NCBI GenBank assembly: GCA_963785725.1
Contig: CAWAWS010000033.1
Coordinates: forward strand, 288,001-352,000
Reading direction: 5' to 3'
DNA from: an uncultured delta proteobacterium
GTDB lineage: Bacteria > Myxococcota_A > Polyangia > Palsa-1104
Length of the DNA stretch: 64,000 nt
The notes beneath the pieces are model-generated. The model ran no database searches and was not told the origin of the DNA. It saw only the letters and a list, made by a program, of their open reading frames with translations. Within the stretch, counting starts at the first letter, position 1; each line of letters starts with the position of its first letter. Below are positions 4,650 through 14,145 of this stretch, piece after piece. The position numbers were made by a program, and so were the translations under genes.

Positions 4650-5363
4650 TTAGACTTCGACTTTCAGCGTCGGCTTCGTGTTGGGGTAGATCTGCTCGAC
4701 GGCCGGTTCGTCGGGACCGGGCTTTTGCATGGCGAACGCATTGACCGGCTGCGATCGATTGATCCAGAGCGCGTAGTACAGATGATCGGACCGCGGGTCA
4801 TCGGTATTCGGATGCAGCAATATCGTCAACCCGAGACTATTGAGCTGCAGCCACGGCACCAGCACCGGCAGCAAATCGTTGGTGAAGCCGAAATAGAATG
4901 ACGGCGTCACGTGCGGACCGCGCGGCTGCAGATTCCAATTGCCGAGCTCGACCAGGAAGCGCTCCGCGACCCACTTACGAATCAGCGCCGCCTTTTCGTA
5001 GCTGTCTTCGTCGAAGTAGACGTGCGCGTGATAGCTCTCGATGTCGGTGTATTTGCGCGGCCGCGCCGGCAGCTGCTGCTCGCCCGGCCTGACGCTCGGC
5101 GGACGCGGCGTCGGCTCCTTGTACGTCTCGTAGCCCCACGGGCTGCGGCCGGGCGCGTGCGGCGGCGCCACGCGCGTCGCGGCCGCCGCGTTCGATCGAC
5201 CGCTCGGCGCTTCGCCGGCGACGGCGGCCCGCGCAGTCGCCGCGCGCGCCAGCGTCAACGCCGCCAAGCCCGCCGTCACCACCTGCCGGCGACTCGGTCC
5301 CAGCCGATCGGCCCAGGCTTGGTCATCGCCGCTCGGCTCGTCCTCTTGCGATCGTTCACTCAT
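4650..5363 (-). CDS. DOPA 4,5-dioxygenase family protein with a Tat-like signal peptide
   Basis: SYHAHVYF...GPH...LLHPNT...DH motifs; N-terminal SRRQVV, hydrophobic stretch and ARA site; start chosen at the ATG at 5363. Confidence 0.75.
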   Translation of the reverse strand: MSERSQEDEPSGDDQAWADRLGPSRRQVVTAGLAALTLARAATARAAVAGEAPSGRSNAAAATRVAPPHAPGRSPWGYETYKEPTPRPPSVRPGEQQLPARPRKYTDIESYHAHVYFDEDSYEKAALIRKWVAERFLVELGNWNLQPRGPHVTPSFYFGFTNDLLPVLVPWLQLNSLGLTILLHPNTDDPRSDHLYYALWINRSQPVNAFAMQKPGPDEPAVEQIYPNTKPTLKVEV

Positions 5364-5383
5364 CGGCGTTATCGCTGGCGGCG

Positions 5384-5965
5384 CTAGCTGGCGCGGCCGA
5401 CGGCGGTGGCGCGCTCGACCTCGATGAGCCGGCCGCTCTCGACCTGGTAGACGTAGCCGTAGATGGGGATGGCGCGCGGCACCAGCGGATGATTGCGGAT
5501 GCGCTCGACGTCGGTGGTGACGCTCTCGGCCTGCTCGCGGATGGTGAGCCAGTCGATGTAGTCGCCTTGGCGCGAGCCGGGACCGGCGCCGACGTCGCGC
5601 CACTGCTTGCCGTCGTGCTGCGCCGTGTGCAGGCTGGACGCGAGCAGGCCGCGGATGATCTCGTCGCTGAACAGCTCCATGCCGCAGCTCGAGTGATGAA
5701 TGACGAACCACTCCTTCGTGCCCAAGAGCTTGTGCGAGATGACGAGCGAGCGGATGGCGTCGTCGCTGGCGCGGCCGCCGGCGTTGCGGATGACGTGCGC
5801 GTCGCCCTCGGCGAGGCCGGCGTATTTGGCCGGATCGAGGCGCGCGTCCATGCAGGTCAAGATGGCGAAGCCGCGCGCCGGCGGCAGCGCCAGCTTGCCC
5901 TTGTCGCCGAACTCGGACGCGTAGCGCGCGTTGGCCTTCAAGACGTCTTCGCGAATCTGGCTCAT
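5384..5965 (-). CDS. Beta-class carbonic anhydrase (clade D-like)
   Basis: [15 protein letters not shown] and HHSSCGM zinc-ligand motifs; GAGGAG RBS. Confidence 0.92.
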
Positions 5966-6001
5966 CGATTCCTCCTCGAGCGTGGACGGTTGGCGATCAG
6001 T

Positions 6002-6074
6002 TGGCGGCCCCTTCCGGGATTCGAACCCGGCTCGACGGTTTTGCAGACCACGCCATCCCAGATGGCAAGGAGCC
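6002..6074 (-). tRNA. Atypical tRNA with GCA (Cys) anticodon, G73 discriminator and encoded CCA
   Basis: GGCTCCTT GCCATC TGG GATGGC GTGGT CTGCAAA ACCGT CGAG CCGGG TTCGAAT CCCGG AAGGGGCC G CCA folds into a cloverleaf with a canonical T-arm and anticodon loop. Confidence 0.8.
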
Positions 6075-6086
6075 AGAGTGTCTTCG

Positions 6087-6182
6087 TTACGACTGCGACT
6101 CGTGACGCTGCGCGATCGCCAGCAGCACGAGGTGGAACAACACGATGCCGAAGCCGAGCGTGTAGTCGACGACGCGGCTCAT
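6087..6182 (-). CDS. 31-aa hydrophobic small protein ([31 protein letters not shown])
   Basis: ATGA overlap with the upstream stop; one TM-like segment; GC3-rich codons; below the ORF-track cutoff. Confidence 0.55.
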
Positions 6183-6505
6183 CGGGCGGCGCCCGCCGCC
6201 GCTATCGGCGCGACGTCCATGCCCGCGAGGATCGCCGCCAGTCGCGCCGGGCTGCAGCGTCGATAGAGCACGACCGGCACGCCGTGAGCGCGCGCCGCTC
6301 GCCGCGCGACGTGCACGGCGCCGTGGCTGTTGACGTCGGTGACGACGATGAGAAAGTCGACGCCGCGCGCCAGCAGATCGAGCGTGTTGCTGCCGCGTCC
6401 GCCGATGTGGCCCGAGTGAAAGGCGATCGAGTGCCCGCTACGCTCGGCGATCTCGCGATAGAGCGACTCGGTCCGTTCGACGCCGCCGACAATACCGATT
6501 CGCAT
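6179..6505 (-). CDS. DUF2325-like small Rossmann-fold protein
   Basis: MRIGIVGG...DFLIVVTDVNSHGAV...ARAHGVPVV pattern. Confidence 0.75.
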   Translation of the reverse strand: MRIGIVGGVERTESLYREIAERSGHSIAFHSGHIGGRGSNTLDLLARGVDFLIVVTDVNSHGAVHVARRAARAHGVPVVLYRRCSPARLAAILAGMDVAPIAAAGAAR

Positions 6506-6508
6506 AGA

Positions 6509-6895
6509 TCACCAGTGCCAAACCTGCTCGTAGCCTTCGAGCAGCTCGGCGAACGCGTGCGCGGCGATCGGCGTCGGTCCGTCGATGATCTCGTCGCGGG
6601 CGATGCCGCGCCGTTTCGCGTCATCCTCGACGTAGAACACGCGCACGCCTTTGTCGCCGAGCCGGCGCACGTCGTCGGCGAGCCGCGGCGGCTGCGTTTG
6701 CCGGCGTTCCCCGAAGGCGAGCCCGCTCGCGTCCTGATCGCGCACGACGTAATTGACCGCGTTGCCGCGCAGGAGCACGTCGGTGTCGGCGCCATTGCCG
6801 CGCAGCGACGTCACCAGCCACAAGACCGGATCGTCCTGCTCCTCGAGCGTCGCGCGATAAGCGGTCTCGACGATCTGCAAAATCTTCTTCGACAT
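6509..6895 (-). CDS. DsrE-superfamily protein (DsrH/TusB-like)
   Basis: VLLRGNAV and VFYVEDDAKRRGI motifs; GGAG RBS. Confidence 0.7.
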   Translation of the reverse strand: MSKKILQIVETAYRATLEEQDDPVLWLVTSLRGNGADTDVLLRGNAVNYVVRDQDASGLAFGERRQTQPPRLADDVRRLGDKGVRVFYVEDDAKRRGIARDEIIDGPTPIAAHAFAELLEGYEQVWHW

Positions 6896-6904
6896 GACGG
6901 CTCC

Positions 6905-7318
6905 TTACTTCGTGGGAATGACGAGCGTGTTGACCGAAGCCGCGACGAACTTGGCGAGGTCGGCGGGGCTGCCGCGGCGCGTGCCGGCGACCGCTTCGGC
7001 GACGCCGCGCTCGTCGACGCACAGGCCGCAGTTGACCCAATCGACTGTGACGGCGCGCGTCTCGGCCTCGGCGAGGATGGCGGCGATCCAATCCTTCGTC
7101 GTCGGATGATCTTCGAGGGCGGCGTCGCGGCCGTGCACGGCGTTGGCGTGCGGCGTCTGCTTGACGAACGGCAGCGCCACGGCGCCTTCGTAAGCGAAGA
7201 CGTTGACGTCGAAGCCGCGCTTGACGGCACGATCGATGAGGCGCAGCGCCGTCGTCGTGCGCGCGTTCTCGTAAGGCGGATCATTGAGCACGAACGTCAG
7301 CGATTGCTTGGTCGACAT
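6905..7318 (-). CDS. DsrE/TusD-like sulfur-relay protein with Cys motif
   Basis: LNDPPY, VFAYEGAV and VNCGLCVDERG (Cys aligned with the TusD persulfide Cys region). Confidence 0.8.
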   Translation of the reverse strand: MSTKQSLTFVLNDPPYENARTTTALRLIDRAVKRGFDVNVFAYEGAVALPFVKQTPHANAVHGRDAALEDHPTTKDWIAAILAEAETRAVTVDWVNCGLCVDERGVAEAVAGTRRGSPADLAKFVAASVNTLVIPTK

Positions 7319-7327
7319 CTTGTCCTC

Positions 7328-7654
7328 CTAATGCCAGAGCGTCGTGTGGCCGGCGGCGAGCCGATCGATGACCGCGTCGAGGTCCGCCGGCGTGATGGCG
7401 GACGCCAGCCGTCCGGCGTGGATGCCGCGCTCGCGCAGCGAGAAGTCGTCGGCGAGGATCGCGACGCCGCTCGCGCGCAGCTCGTCGAGCACGCTCGATT
7501 CGGCCTGTGCGCGCGCCGGCAGCACGCCGTTCTGCACGAGGAAGAACGTCACCTCGTGCCGCTTGCGCGCCAGCGTCGCCGCCAGCCGATAGAAGTAATT
7601 GTCGTCGCCGGACTCGAAGGGATCGCGCGATTCGATCAGCAAATACTTGGCCAT
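7328..7654 (-). CDS. DsrE-superfamily protein (DsrF/TusC-like)
   Basis: SRDPF, VTFFLVQNGV and SLRERGI motifs; AGGAGGAG RBS. Confidence 0.75.
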   Translation of the reverse strand: MAKYLLIESRDPFESGDDNYFYRLAATLARKRHEVTFFLVQNGVLPARAQAESSVLDELRASGVAILADDFSLRERGIHAGRLASAITPADLDAVIDRLAAGHTTLWH

Positions 7655-7673
7655 CAGCTCCTCCTACGAAACG

Positions 7674-7707
7674 AAAAAAGCCCGCCGGCGGGTGCGCGCG
7701 GCGGGCT
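7674..7707 (-). terminator. Intrinsic terminator/attenuator upstream of the DsrE operon
   Basis: AGCCCGCCG-N11-CGGCGGGCT followed by a T-run, between the leader ORF and the first gene. Confidence 0.85.
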
Positions 7708-7726
7708 CGGATGCAGCAAATCGCAA

Positions 7727-7804
7727 CTAAGGAACGGCGATCGGCGGCCCGGTGCCCGCACGTGCGCGACAACATCCCGCGCTGTCCATCGCCATCCGTT
7801 TCAT
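7727..7804 (-). CDS. Cys-Cys attenuator leader peptide 1 (MKRMAMDSAGCCRARAGTGPPIAVP)
   Basis: 25 aa with tandem TGT TGT codons; ATG 6 nt after the -10 box (leaderless-like); terminator follows. Confidence 0.75.
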   Translation of the reverse strand: MKRMAMDSAGCCRARAGTGPPIAVP

Positions 7805-7810
7805 AAGACG

Positions 7811-7839
7811 ACTATCCGTTATAACGGACGCGCTGTCAA
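7811..7839 (-). promoter_or_regulatory. Sigma70-type promoter overlapped by the perfect palindrome TCCGTTATAACGGA (7815-7828)
   Basis: TTGACA (7839-7834), 17-bp spacer, GATAGT (7816-7811). Confidence 0.7.
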
Positions 7840-8288
7840 GGGCGTAAATAGCGCCACTTCTTCTCCGGCTTGCCGTGCTTGCCGCGGCGATCGGTCGTCC
7901 AGCCGCTGCAGGCGGACATGTGCTTGAAGACATCGGCGGGATCGGCCAAACGATCGGGCACGATGGGCTCGCTGCACAGCCAGCAGATCGTGACCTCGGC
8001 CGCCTCTTCGGCGACGCGCCTGGGGCCTTTGACGGCGACGCGCAGCACGAGCTTGGCGCGCCGCAAGTGCTCGAGCGCGATCCTCGCCGCGCCGGATTCG
8101 AGCGTGCCCAGCCGAATCTCCTCGGCGACGCGGCGCTCGGTGTCGCGCAACGCGTCCAGCGAGGTCGGCACCTCGGCGCCTTGGCGCGCGACGCCCGCGT
8201 CCTCCGCGACCCGCTCGGCGAGCGGCGCCGATCGTTCCGCCGCGAGCAGTTGCGGCACTCCCAAGCGGCGTTGCTGAAGCATGCCCAT
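7836..8288 (-). CDS. Hypothetical protein with C-terminal C-x2-C...H-x3-C Zn-finger-like motif and basic tail
   Basis: CWLC...FKHMSAC; AGGAG RBS; immediately downstream of attenuator 2. Confidence 0.6.
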   Translation of the reverse strand: MGMLQQRRLGVPQLLAAERSAPLAERVAEDAGVARQGAEVPTSLDALRDTERRVAEEIRLGTLESGAARIALEHLRRAKLVLRVAVKGPRRVAEEAAEVTICWLCSEPIVPDRLADPADVFKHMSACSGWTTDRRGKHGKPEKKWRYLRP

Positions 8289-8321
8289 GACCGTTCTCCT
8301 GACAAAGTCGCAAACGTGCGT

Positions 8322-8363
8322 AAAAGCAAAAAGCCCACCGACCCTCGCGGGCTGGTGGGCTTT
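8322..8363 (-). terminator. Intrinsic terminator/attenuator 2
   Basis: AAAGCCCACC-N14-GGTGGGCTTT followed by TTGCTTTT. Confidence 0.85.
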
Positions 8364-8381
8364 GGACCGCGTTCAGCGTCC

Positions 8382-8456
8382 TTAACAGCGCGCTGACGGA
8401 CCGTCGCCCATGCATCGCCGACAACACGTCGCGCGGTCGATGATCGGGCAACCCAT
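8382..8456 (-). CDS. Cys-rich attenuator leader peptide 2 (MGCPIIDRATCCRRCMGDGPSARC)
   Basis: 24 aa with 5 Cys; D7, A9, C11, C12, R13, G17, G19 and P20 at the same positions as in leader 1; terminator follows. Confidence 0.78.
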   Translation of the reverse strand: MGCPIIDRATCCRRCMGDGPSARC

Positions 8457-8462
8457 CCTTCG

Positions 8463-8492
8463 CTTTTATCCGTTATTGCGGATGAATGTCAA
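8463..8492 (-). promoter_or_regulatory. Promoter with TTGACA -35 box and TCCG-N6-CGGA operator (8469-8482)
   Basis: TTGACA at 8492-8487; same architecture as the promoter at 7811-7839; -10 box less clear. Confidence 0.6.
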
Positions 8493-8541
8493 ATCCGTGC
8501 ACTTTCCCGGCCGATTTGCGGGAATTGCGCGAGCGTCATCG

Positions 8542-8555
8542 TCCGCTATTACGGA
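8542..8555. promoter_or_regulatory. Third TCCG-N6-CGGA operator-like site
   Basis: TCCGCTATTACGGA. Confidence 0.5.
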
Positions 8556-8640
8556 TGCCGATACGAAGCGTTAGCTGCAAGCGAGGGAATGGTCGAGCAG
8601 GGACGGCTGGGACAATCGGCGCGCAGTGGCGCGCGCGGCG

Positions 8641-12409: not shown

Positions 12410-12472
12410 CCGACCCATGTTCGACCGCGCGAGAGACGGAATCTCTCGATGACCCGCAACCTGGAGGAACAG

Positions 12473-12658
12473 ATGAAAGACGTGAAGGACGAACTGAAGA
12501 AGCTGAGCAACGAGGCGCTGGCGAGCGTTCGCGGCGGTACCGTCACGCTGCGTCCGCCGTCGCTCGGCGGAGTCGGCGGCGGCAGCGCGCTTCTTTGCGG
12601 CGGCGATGCCATGGCCGAGAGCTGCGTTGCCATCATCCACATCCCCGCCAAGCAGTAA
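12473..12658 (+). CDS. Putative RiPP precursor with double-glycine leader
   Basis: GGAGGA RBS; MKDVKDELKKLSNEALASVRGG leader; core has 2 Cys; 11 bp upstream of the radical SAM gene. Confidence 0.75.
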   Translation: MKDVKDELKKLSNEALASVRGGTVTLRPPSLGGVGGGSALLCGGDAMAESCVAIIHIPAKQ

Positions 12659-12669
12659 GGAGTAGCCAC

Positions 12670-14145
12670 ATGTCCTCGAAGATCGCTGGCGCCTATCAGA
12701 CGTCTCGTTACAACTTCTTCGTACCGACGATCGAGGCGACGCTGCTTTACAACTCGCTCCACGGAAGCGTCGTCGGTCTGGGCTCGGCGCAAGCGGCCAA
12801 GCTTGCTTCGGCGCTGGCCAAGCCGGGCGTCGCGGTCTTCGAGGATGATCTACCACCCGAGCTGTTCTTGCAGCTCAGCGAAGGGCACTTCGTCGTCCCG
12901 CCGGGAACGGACGAGCTGGCGCTCATCAAAGAGCGCTTTCGCAAGGCGCGCAATGACGCGCCGGCGATTCTGACGATTACGACGACCATGGATTGCAACC
13001 TCGGCTGCTACTACTGTTATGAAGAGCGCTCCGGCGATCAGCTGACCCAGCAAGGCGATCTGGAAGCGCTCGTGGCCGAGGCGCGGCGCCTCGTGACGCG
13101 GCAAAACAAGACGACGCTGCATGTCGATTGGTATGGCGGCGAGCCGCTCCTGAACGTCGAGTTTCTCGAGGTGGCGTCGGCGCGTCTGTGTGCGCTCGCC
13201 GATGAGCTCGGCGTGCATTACGAGGCGTCGATCCTGACCAACGGCACCTGTTGGCCGGAGGATGTGGGCGCCTTCGTGGCGCGACATCGCATCGTCCGCG
13301 TGCAGATTCCGTTCGATGGGCTCAAGGAGAATCACGACAAACGAAGGCATTATCGCAAGGGTTATGCGCCTTCGGAGGACGCGTCGAGCTTCGAGCTGGC
13401 CGCCGCGCTCGTCGGAAAGCTGCTCGACCACACGCGCGTCGACATCCGCTGCAATATCGATCGTTCCAACGGCTCGGACTTTGTCGGGCTGATTCGCTTT
13501 GCACGCGAGCAGGGCTGGTTCGACAAGCGCTTCGCCGCGGTCATTCAACCGGCGCGCTTGACGAAATACTCCGAGCACACGTCGTTCATGCACAAGGCCG
13601 AGCTCGTTCGCAGCGACTTCGACACCGTTCGAGAGGAGATCGAGCGCGCGGTTCCCACGCATGTCGAAGTGCAAAACTCGAAAGTAGCGGCGTTTCCCGA
13701 GCCGCGCTTCTCGGTCTGCGCGGCGCTCAATGAAGATGCCGTCGTCGTCGGCGCCAATGGCTCGCTCTATCGCTGTGGCTTGCAGGTGGGCGAAAAGCAC
13801 CGCGTCGTCGGCGAGCTTCATGGCGCCGCGGCCAAACCGGACAACAAGCGCCATTTACCGCTTCTCGGCGCCGCCGGTAATGACGTCGAATTCTGGCGCA
13901 CATTCGATCCGACGGAGCGCCCGCGCTGCTCGGCCTGCACGTTCTTGCCGATCTGTTGGTCGGGTTGCCCCAAGGTGCATCTCGAAGGCGACGCACTGGC
14001 GATCGCACGGCAAGGCGAATACTGGCGCACCAACCTTCCGCGGCAGGTCGCCAACGGGCTCGGGCTTACGCTCGACGGAGAGTACGCGTTTTCGGCGCAA
14101 GACCAGTTCCCGGATGGCGAGCCCGAGACCCTCTCGCACTCGTAA
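12670..14145 (+). CDS. Radical SAM/SPASM peptide maturase
   Basis: CNLGCYYC, WYGGEPLL and SPASM CSACTFLPICWSGC; N-terminal SRYN...LLYNSLHG RRE-like region. Confidence 0.9.
   Translation: MSSKIAGAYQTSRYNFFVPTIEATLLYNSLHGSVVGLGSAQAAKLASALAKPGVAVFEDDLPPELFLQLSEGHFVVPPGTDELALIKERFRKARNDAPAILTITTTMDCNLGCYYCYEERSGDQLTQQGDLEALVAEARRLVTRQNKTTLHVDWYGGEPLLNVEFLEVASARLCALADELGVHYEASILTNGTCWPEDVGAFVARHRIVRVQIPFDGLKENHDKRRHYRKGYAPSEDASSFELAAALVGKLLDHTRVDIRCNIDRSNGSDFVGLIRFAREQGWFDKRFAAVIQPARLTKYSEHTSFMHKAELVRSDFDTVREEIERAVPTHVEVQNSKVAAFPEPRFSVCAALNEDAVVVGANGSLYRCGLQVGEKHRVVGELHGAAAKPDNKRHLPLLGAAGNDVEFWRTFDPTERPRCSACTFLPICWSGCPKVHLEGDALAIARQGEYWRTNLPRQVANGLGLTLDGEYAFSAQDQFPDGEPETLSHS

Follow-up and report, generated by a model that had tools for sequence, protein, structure and literature searches.

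A noncanonical tRNA family with a cysteine anticodon, very probably part of a sulfur-linked regulon, in an uncultured delta proteobacterium

Gene content of the locus

The window analyzed here is a stretch of 64,000 nucleotides (nt) from an uncultured delta proteobacterium of the class Polyangia (assembly GCA_963785725.1, contig CAWAWS010000033.1, positions 288,001 to 352,000). At 4650..8560, its minus strand carries a noncanonical tRNA with the anticodon GCA and the discriminator base G73 among genes for several protein families. A first-pass annotation, made from the letters alone, had described this locus as a single system uniting Cys leaders, a DsrEFH-like sulfur relay, the tRNA, a DUF2325 protein and a beta-carbonic anhydrase (beta-CA). 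Every part that it listed was found in its place, namely, two promoters, two Cys leaders with terminators, three DsrE-family genes, the DUF2325 gene, a gene for a peptide of 31 amino acids (aa), the tRNA (GCA, G73), a clade-D beta-CA gene and a gene of the DOPA dioxygenase family (Table 1). The composite system itself is a local assembly, and the main find is the tRNA together with a palindromic operator, absent from that annotation.

The gene order is not an artifact of assembly, since contigs of related strains from four soil studies bridge most of the neighboring genes. They join the beta-CA gene to the tRNA, the tRNA to the peptide and DUF2325, DUF2325 to the third and middle DsrE genes, the middle to the first DsrE gene and leader 2, and the 150-aa open reading frame (ORF) to leader 1; no single piece spans the whole locus. 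In one related strain, the DNA after the tRNA differs from the beta-CA gene.

Table 1. Features of the locus, in the order of transcription (window coordinates)
Feature	Position	Strand	Remarks
Palindromic operator, upstream copy	8542..8555	.	23.8 bits; one of the matrix training sites
Promoter 1 (TTGACA, 16 nt, GATAAA), predicted	8465..8492	-	Operator 8469-8482 within spacer
Cys leader peptide 1	8382..8456	-	24 aa, 5 Cys; ATG 8 nt past -10 box
Intrinsic terminator 1	8322..8363	-	Left arm can pair with leader (predicted antiterminator)
150-aa ORF, CxxC...HxxxC motif, without family	7836..8288	-	
Promoter 2 (TTGACA, 17 nt, GATAGT), predicted	7811..7839	-	Operator 7815-7828 within spacer
Cys leader peptide 2	7727..7804	-	25 aa, Cys-Cys, paralogue of leader 1; ATG 6 nt past -10 box
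Intrinsic terminator 2	7674..7707	-	Antiterminator geometry as in terminator 1
First DsrE-family gene	7328..7654	-	108 aa, no Cys, weakly DsrH-like; PF02635, E 1.6e-5
Middle DsrE-family gene	6905..7318	-	137 aa, invariant CxxC (CGLC); PF02635, E 9.9e-8
Third DsrE-family gene	6509..6895	-	128 aa, no Cys, weakly DsrH-like; PF02635, E 5.1e-5
DUF2325 protein	6179..6505	-	108 aa; PF10087, E 1.2e-17; small Rossmann-like fold (predicted)
Hydrophobic peptide, 31 aa	6087..6182	-	Frame and stop kept in related strains
Noncanonical tRNA	6002..6074	-	GCA anticodon, G73, encoded CCA, acceptor of 8 bp, D stem of 5 bp with a loop of 3 nt, bulge in anticodon stem, variable region of 2-4 nt
Beta-CA	5384..5965	-	PF00484; PDB matches 5ZTP (2.8e-39), 3VQJ (4.7e-29), 3TEN (4.1e-25)
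DOPA 4,5-dioxygenase-family protein, N-terminal extension (start uncertain)	4650..5363	-	PF08883, E 8.4e-24

Structure, conservation and distribution of the tRNA

ARAGORN called the tRNA of the window (6002-6074, 73 nt) a tRNA-Cys, and Rfam returned nothing at gathering level, the best match being tRNA-Sec (RF01852, 32.6 bits against a cut-off of 47). Metagenomes were searched with a pattern that required the GCA anticodon, G73-CCA and an acceptor domain of 13 bp; of its 10 matches, five were near-copies of the same length as the window tRNA. The covariance model built from the metagenome copies then matched in 7 of 138 genomes of the family f9, where six hits were members and one was a tRNA-Trp of a tRNA array. 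With the window tRNA, this makes 11 distinct sequences, one genome copy being identical to a metagenome copy. Longer GCA matches to the G73-CCA pattern (L119, L120, L123 and L125) have extended variable regions and may be other unusual tRNAs or remnants of integration sites.

The acceptor (8 pairs), D (5 pairs) and T (5 pairs) stems are 100% paired over the 11 copies. Four stem pairs changed on both sides, a number reached by 0 of 500 shuffles, which is not a probability because the sequences are related. The anticodon stem carries a bulge of 1 or 2 bases at a shifting position. GCA and G73 occur in 11/11 copies, in five of which the search pattern demanded them. The features of an elongator tRNA are kept, with its T loop, an anticodon loop with U33 (10/11) and CCA (10/11). 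Because neither the D arm nor pair 8 of the acceptor varies in any copy, both an 8/5 acceptor domain and a 7/5 domain plus bulge fit the alignment. In related strains the flanks vary, while no substitution is listed within the tRNA. The acceptor stems of the 11 copies hold 11 U.G wobbles, apparently one per copy, at position 3, 4, 5 or 6, and a U stands at position -1 in all nine flanks examined.

The family is rare and patchily distributed. Its carriers are 6 of the 138 f9 genomes, and a draw from the class found it in 4 of 67 f9 genomes versus 0 of 333 others. It was found in none of the 41 genomes of the window's own order, in none of 400 genomes drawn evenly over the phylum and in no viral contig in three scans. 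Within 5 kb of the 11 copies (two of them on contigs under 1.4 kb), the recurring neighbors were DUF2325 (7 copies), a TauD-family dioxygenase (4), a glutathione S-transferase (3), an XRE-cupin protein (3), an unannotated hydrolase-like protein (3), rhodanese (2), an encapsulin-type cysteine desulfurase (2), a porin (2) and SsuE (1). The DsrE trio, the beta-CA gene and the DOPA dioxygenase gene lie near the tRNA in the window only. The tRNA is a small conserved family of its own, independent of the trio.

Annotation hides this family, since ARAGORN labeled six of the seven genome copies as ordinary tRNA-Cys and missed the seventh. No description of it was found in the literature searched, which covered few subscription journals, though the irregular tRNAs figured with PMC5389517 may include one of this type; the parts available of a 2026 survey of short anticodon stems (PMC13092985) do not mention it.

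A palindromic operator links the tRNA to sulfur genes

Both promoters of the locus hold a TCCG-N6-CGGA palindrome between their -35 and -10 boxes, and a third copy lies upstream. The genome has 26 strong copies in 12 places, of which 6 comprise the window operon, a porin gene together with one for an XRE-cupin regulator (G000:C2:55046-55651), YeeE/YedE, a sulfate permease, a group of SsuE, SfnB-like and SsuD genes, and a degenerate DsrE gene with DUF2325. This tally is partly circular, because the matrix was trained on 13 sites of this genome alone, all from these six places.

With this same matrix, 8 of the 10 other tRNA copies proved to have the operator upstream within 600 nt, at 13.2 to 30.7 bits (p of at most 0.004 for every one of them, judged by 1500 random windows), while the best of 132 control windows reached 8.7 bits. 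In three copies (L127, G713 and G641), the tRNA is the first gene after a promoter made of TTGAC and the operator. Of the DsrE trio loci, 5/82 have an operator upstream. From its position and recurrence, we infer that the XRE-cupin protein is the repressor of this operator; it presumably resembles SutR of Escherichia coli. The operator was not found described in the literature listings searched.

These results suggest that the tRNA is very probably a real, selected RNA within a sulfur-linked regulon. The idea of a cysteine- or sulfur-starvation module, put forward by the first-pass annotation, is supported by the geometry of the attenuators and by the operator at SsuE/SsuD, YeeE/YedE and the sulfate permease. 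Elsewhere in the genome, the operator occurs five times in a second, partly decayed regulon locus (G000:C17:2506-6471, L144), together with a stretch of tandem repeats and genes for a degenerate DsrE-like protein, DUF2325 and a porin. Nine operator-like palindromes, under the threshold for strong sites, lie within about 750 bp (G000:C15:375215-375958, L143) past a ruvCAB-like cluster, a name that rests on the N termini.

Two predicted cysteine attenuators

When the 8.9-Mb genome was scanned for short Cys-Cys ORFs with a hairpin and a U-run behind them, only the two places of this locus came up. The two leaders are paralogous, with the common pattern DxAxCCR...GxGP, and 5/7 of their Cys codons are TGT, versus a share of 13% in the genome (p = 7e-4). 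Leader 1 is likely leaderless, since its ATG stands 8 nt past the -10 box. The terminator regions have folding z values of -4.4 and -2.2. A consensus scan called only promoter 2 (7839-7811) and terminator 1; promoter 1 and terminator 2 were taken from the sequence and its folds.

In both leaders, a GGGC lies 11 nt past the Cys pair and is able to pair with the left arm of the terminator. When a ribosome is placed at the Cys pair, the exposed RNA is predicted to form an antiterminator, whose energy of -28 or -27 kcal/mol shrinks to -9 or -7 kcal/mol with 30 nt covered. In equilibrium folds of the full length the terminator wins every time, and therefore the switch must be kinetic. The predicted folds give both leaders the classical geometry of a Class I (leader peptide, terminator) attenuator.

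Polycysteine leaderless short ORFs (sORFs) of mycobacteria sense Cys, and stalling on them frees a ribosome-binding site (bioRxiv 10.1101/834739, partial text). The likeness lies in short, likely leaderless ORFs of Cys codons ahead of sulfur genes; unlike the release of a ribosome-binding site described there, the geometry of our locus points to an intrinsic terminator as the site where transcription is antiterminated, with a DNA operator as a further layer. Such leaders were not seen as a general trait of DsrE trios: among the loci examined (all but about 16), one was seen only in Vitiosangium (L024), where a Cys-rich leader ORF (4 Cys in 13 aa) lies upstream of the first DsrE gene with no obvious U-run terminator.

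The DsrE trio is a stand-alone cassette

The middle DsrE protein, with its CGLC motif, has 6347 homologues and 516 matches in contigs of GTDB genomes. The nearest named homologues of the locus come from assemblies of Polyangia and Myxococcales, in line with a host from a soil lineage of myxobacteria. We compared the trio with 86 other loci (80 fetched from the 516 matches and 6 more, many of them on short contigs). The first DsrE gene was present in 83 and the third in 84 of them, while DUF2325 and beta-CA were present in two each and the tRNA in none. Reciprocally, the trio was found in none of the five other tRNA-carrying genomes examined. No neighbor of the trio is conserved, as the best other cluster covers 11/86 loci and looks like a generic signaling protein, and clustering of the neighborhoods did not yield a recurring partner such as DsrC/TusE, TusA or MnmA. 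The trio is thus a widespread stand-alone cassette, whose closest relatives have sulfur genes around them (rhodanese, YeeE/YedE, the TauD family, FMN reductase and XRE-cupin proteins).

These counts bear directly on the first-pass annotation, which had joined trio, tRNA, DUF2325, beta-CA and Cys leaders into one system and had named a gene-neighborhood search as its check. Homologous trios lack the tRNA, and the joint system is not sustained. A tRNA-linked sulfur chemistry, which it had also held possible, is unlikely to run through the DsrE proteins, because trio and tRNA do not occur together in the other loci and genomes. In another delta-proteobacterial assembly (L019:12647-12737), a DsrE trio has, at a distance of 5 kb and on the other strand, a tRNA-Sec-like 8/5 tRNA with GCA, U73 and a long variable arm, reminiscent of SelC*.

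The labels DsrF, DsrE and DsrH find no support. All three proteins carry PF02635 and form a DsrE-fold trio, whereas the individual assignments fail: the first and third proteins are homologous to each other and both weakly DsrH-like, the middle one is weakly DsrE-like, and the NCBIfam scores stay far under the cut-offs (16 bits versus 89 for TusD, 16-18 versus 49 for TusB, no match to TusC). Matches in the PDB are weak only. DsrEFH and TusBCD have a single active Cys. The trio is alike in its three tandem DsrE-fold genes of fixed order with one subunit bearing a conserved Cys; it differs in its CxxC, its two DsrH-like subunits, its want of a recurring partner gene and its sub-threshold scores, and it fits no curated equivalog. 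The CxxC is invariant in 29/29 aligned homologues and in 81/81 locus homologues (the locus search itself used this motif), and the CGLC protein is likely the catalytic subunit. The trio probably works like a carrier of the DsrEFH type, with no orthology to DsrE/TusD, DsrF/TusC and DsrH/TusB found. No description of it was found in the literature searched, which covered few subscription journals.

Other genes of the locus

DUF2325 is a fellow member of the regulon and not a partner of the tRNA, because it occurs without the tRNA, falls in a separate clade and has a generic fold. The gene is absent near 4 of the 11 copies, and of 9 f9 loci scanned, 8 have it with no tRNA of this kind, which excludes an obligatory partner; in a quick tree (109 columns), the window protein lies in another clade than the f9 proteins. 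An L7Ae-type RNA-binding fold, considered as a candidate, was unsupported: the model (pLDDT 90) is a small, generic Rossmann-like fold with no PDB match at E 0.001 or better.

The beta-CA is close to solved enzymes of the clade-D type, which include COS and CS2 hydrolases, its best matches being labeled plain carbonic anhydrase; by sequence, it is possibly a COS hydrolase. We infer that the DsrE trio, a predicted carrier of persulfide or thiol, and the beta-CA are likewise fellow members of the regulon and not partners of the tRNA.

The 150-aa ORF had been called Zn-finger-like. Its CxxC...HxxxC motif is present, and a known family is not: neither Pfam nor NCBIfam assigns it to one, and the Atlas gave no match at 0.9 or above. 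It occurs in none of the 86 other trio loci and is covered by contigs of related strains. The 31-aa peptide has no family match; in related strains, no insertion or deletion is listed inside its ORF and several changes are synonymous. Of 9 copies checked, 4 (L118, L126, L182 [G674] and L185 [G641]) have a hydrophobic or amphipathic ORF of 21-29 aa just past the tRNA; the window peptide precedes it. At 12449-14145 of the window, a short precursor-like ORF is followed by a radical SAM gene, possibly a pair for a ribosomally synthesized and posttranslationally modified peptide that is unrelated to the locus.

Origin and identity elements of the tRNA

Outside the family, the best matches of its covariance model were compact tRNA-Trp of tRNA arrays, with 44.9 bits in the window genome and 52.6 bits in f9; canonical tRNA-Cys scored 31.7-39.3 bits and a SelC*-like tRNA 20.4 bits. 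Phage tRNA-Trp share the UGG D loop, the extended anticodon stem, the very short variable region and G73 with the family, and they were chosen by a similar pattern, which biases the model scores upward. The scaffold is likely of Trp type by ancestry. In several copies, the anticodon arm is almost the same as in the canonical f9 tRNA-Cys, so that a chimera is possible.

An array of 20 tRNAs in the window genome (G000:C3:124966-129345, L147) includes RtcB and Ro60/TROVE genes, a compact tRNA-Trp and a second tRNA-Cys (U73). The phage and array tRNA-Trp (L197-L221, L179 and L147), with a 3-nt D loop, almost no linker between acceptor and D stems and an extended anticodon stem, were not found described in the literature searched.

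Aminoacylation rules bear on what such a tRNA may carry. CysRS has U73 and GCA as its major determinants, TrpRS reads the discriminator and the anticodon (G73 being major in Bacillus subtilis), and SerRS depends mainly on the long variable arm, plus G73 (PMC9976931, partial text). U73 was kept in 17/17 canonical tRNA-Cys, a set that covers each of the 7 carrier genomes, and a tRNA-Cys was present in 21/21 f9 genomes. The first-pass annotation had the locus supplying its own Cys-codon tRNA. The anticodon bears out the codon; loading with Cys is doubtful, because G73 replaces the U73 needed by CysRS.

Proposed role of the tRNA and alternatives

The best explanation of the locus, to which we give a probability of about 0.4, takes up the second suggestion of the first-pass annotation, a rescue of translation at Cys codons. 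In this view, independent modules came together at strain level behind a common operator, with a conserved accessory tRNA that, having a Cys anticodon and a non-Cys discriminator, would carry another amino acid and let ribosomes pass Cys codons under Cys shortage. When sulfur is short, the XRE-cupin repressor would let go of the operator and, in the window strain, stalling at the leader Cys codons would then open the two terminators. The tRNA, excised from the transcript, would be weakly loaded by a host synthetase that uses G73, either TrpRS, given the likely ancestry, or SerRS, given the sequence of the acceptor end, with Trp or Ser as the most likely residue. It would insert this residue at UGC and UGU only when Cys-tRNA is depleted. 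Such missense insertion would spare sulfur and free stalled ribosomes and, in the window strain, would feed back negatively on both attenuators. Natural missense tRNAs such as tRNA-ProX and allo-tRNA offer a precedent (PMC11415595, partial text). The bolder claim is that a sulfur-starvation regulon with its own missense tRNA, a Trp-type scaffold with a Cys anticodon, has Cys codons deliberately misread under sulfur shortage; such programmed, nutrient-triggered recoding, with a new tRNA fold acting on a sense codon, is doubtful.

Several observations weigh against a missense tRNA. No synthetase fits well by the known rules: the long arm for SerRS is absent, TrpRS recognizes each of the three bases of the anticodon, and the distance from anticodon to CCA would differ with an 8/5 acceptor domain. 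A dedicated synthetase was not found: 6/6 carriers examined have a single CysRS, the window genome (88% complete) has no SepRS or PylRS, a second TrpRS occurs in only three of five f9 carriers and never beside an operator, and there is no synthetase among the annotated neighbors of the tRNA copies. The invariant D arm fits recognition by some other protein, one copy has U33C, another lacks the encoded CCA, and for 5 of 11 copies G73 was demanded at the outset. As for regulation, an obvious sulfur gene is lacking at 6 of the 12 strong-operator places, the genome as a whole shows no enrichment of the bare palindrome (69 seen versus 88 expected), and 2 of the 10 other tRNA copies have no operator match within 600 nt.

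Part of this evidence would suit an uncharged tRNA mimic that signals or buffers Cys shortage, by occupying Cys codons and eliciting the stringent response, by binding CysRS or as a decoy for an anticodon nuclease. In its favor, the tRNA lacks the full identity set of any standard synthetase, a dedicated one was not found, one copy has U33C, and an invariant D arm and anticodon stand beside variable acceptor pairs. Some irregular tRNAs are charged but unused, or inactive, in translation (PMC5389517, partial text). Since T arm, CCA end and paired acceptor all remain elongator-like, and the annotated neighbors include no toxin, nuclease or RelA-type gene, we consider this role, the main rival, rather unlikely.

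An extra tRNA-Cys, loaded by the host CysRS despite G73 and boosting Cys decoding in starvation, would explain GCA in all copies and the anticodon arms shared with canonical f9 tRNA-Cys, and the SelC* tRNA-Cys shows that an 8-bp acceptor can be cysteinylated (PMC5389517, partial text). This reading runs against the conservation of U73, the major CysRS determinant, in canonical tRNA-Cys, including the carriers' own (PMC9976931, partial text); moreover, a second CysRS was not found, and an additional tRNA gives no additional cysteine. It is improbable.

A scaffold for tRNA-dependent sulfur chemistry, on which Ser would be loaded and turned into Cys or selenocysteine by SelA or a DsrE relay, is more improbable still. 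The 8/5 fold, the small D loop, G73 and the sub-threshold Rfam match all recall tRNA-Sec, and SelA is present in all seven carrier genomes; yet SelA is equally present in 18/18 non-carriers, trio and tRNA are not together outside the window lineage, the long variable arm for SerRS is absent, SepRS was not found, and the family model scores array tRNA-Trp far over Sec-type tRNAs. The window genome also carries a separate tRNA-Sec.

Least probable is a decayed or passively carried tRNA gene of a mobile element, or a mere signal for mRNA processing, as the patchy spread (0/41 in the own order, 6/138 in f9, 0/333 of the others in the class draw) and the small defects of two copies might suggest, against compensatory stem changes, the lack of substitutions while flanks vary, an own operator-bearing promoter in three copies and a Cys anticodon kept inside a sulfur regulon.

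Comparison with known tRNAs

When natural missense or hybrid-identity tRNA genes are expressed, and to what purpose, is unknown according to a recent review (PMC11415595, partial text). The family described here brings its own hypothesis, its anticodon matching the limiting nutrient and its operator being common to sulfur-scavenging genes. Any outcome, be it a missense adaptor, an uncharged signal or a CysRS tolerating G73, would extend the rules of tRNA identity. By-products of the analysis are the operator of a probable XRE-cupin sulfur regulon, a pair of predicted Cys transcription attenuators and the DsrE trio.

The nearest functional parallel is tRNA-ProX with ProRSx of Streptomyces, likewise an accessory tRNA of soil bacteria with a mismatch between anticodon and identity, an unusual structure and a proposed role in deliberate mistranslation (PMC11415595, partial text). 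It differs in anticodon and scaffold and has a dedicated synthetase, none being found here; the conditions of its expression are stated to be unknown, whereas our tRNA stands behind an operator common to sulfur-scavenging genes.

In structure, both SelC* tRNA-Cys and the allo-tRNAs share the 8-bp acceptor and the long D stem with a small loop, SelC* also GCA and many allo-tRNAs G73, but their variable arm is long, their acceptor domain measures 12 bp (8/4 or 9/3), and SelC* has U73 (PMC5389517 and PMC7609411, partial texts). The tRNA of the window, in contrast, combines GCA with G73, lacks a long arm and has a T stem of 5 bp. With tRNA-Sec, it shares the 8/5 (13-bp) acceptor domain, if the eighth pair is real, G73 and the small D loop, and a form of tRNA-Sec with the anticodon GCA is known from Aeromonas (passages of PMC11415595); unlike tRNA-Sec, it has no long variable arm, has a 5-bp D stem with a 3-nt loop, falls under the Rfam cut-off and does not lie beside sel genes. 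The compact tRNA-Trp(CCA) of arrays and phages is alike in G73, in its UGG D loop, in a variable region of very few nucleotides and in an anticodon stem that is extended and often has a bulge; it differs in its CCA anticodon, its 7-bp acceptor and its shorter 5' part, and it lies in tRNA arrays, not in sulfur operons. With canonical tRNA-Cys, finally, the family shares GCA, but neither U73 nor the 7/5 cloverleaf with a normal D loop. Lacking a defining feature of each of tRNA-ProX, SelC*, allo-tRNA and tRNA-Sec, the fold with its pairing of GCA and G73 appears to be a variant of its own among tRNAs of hybrid identity.

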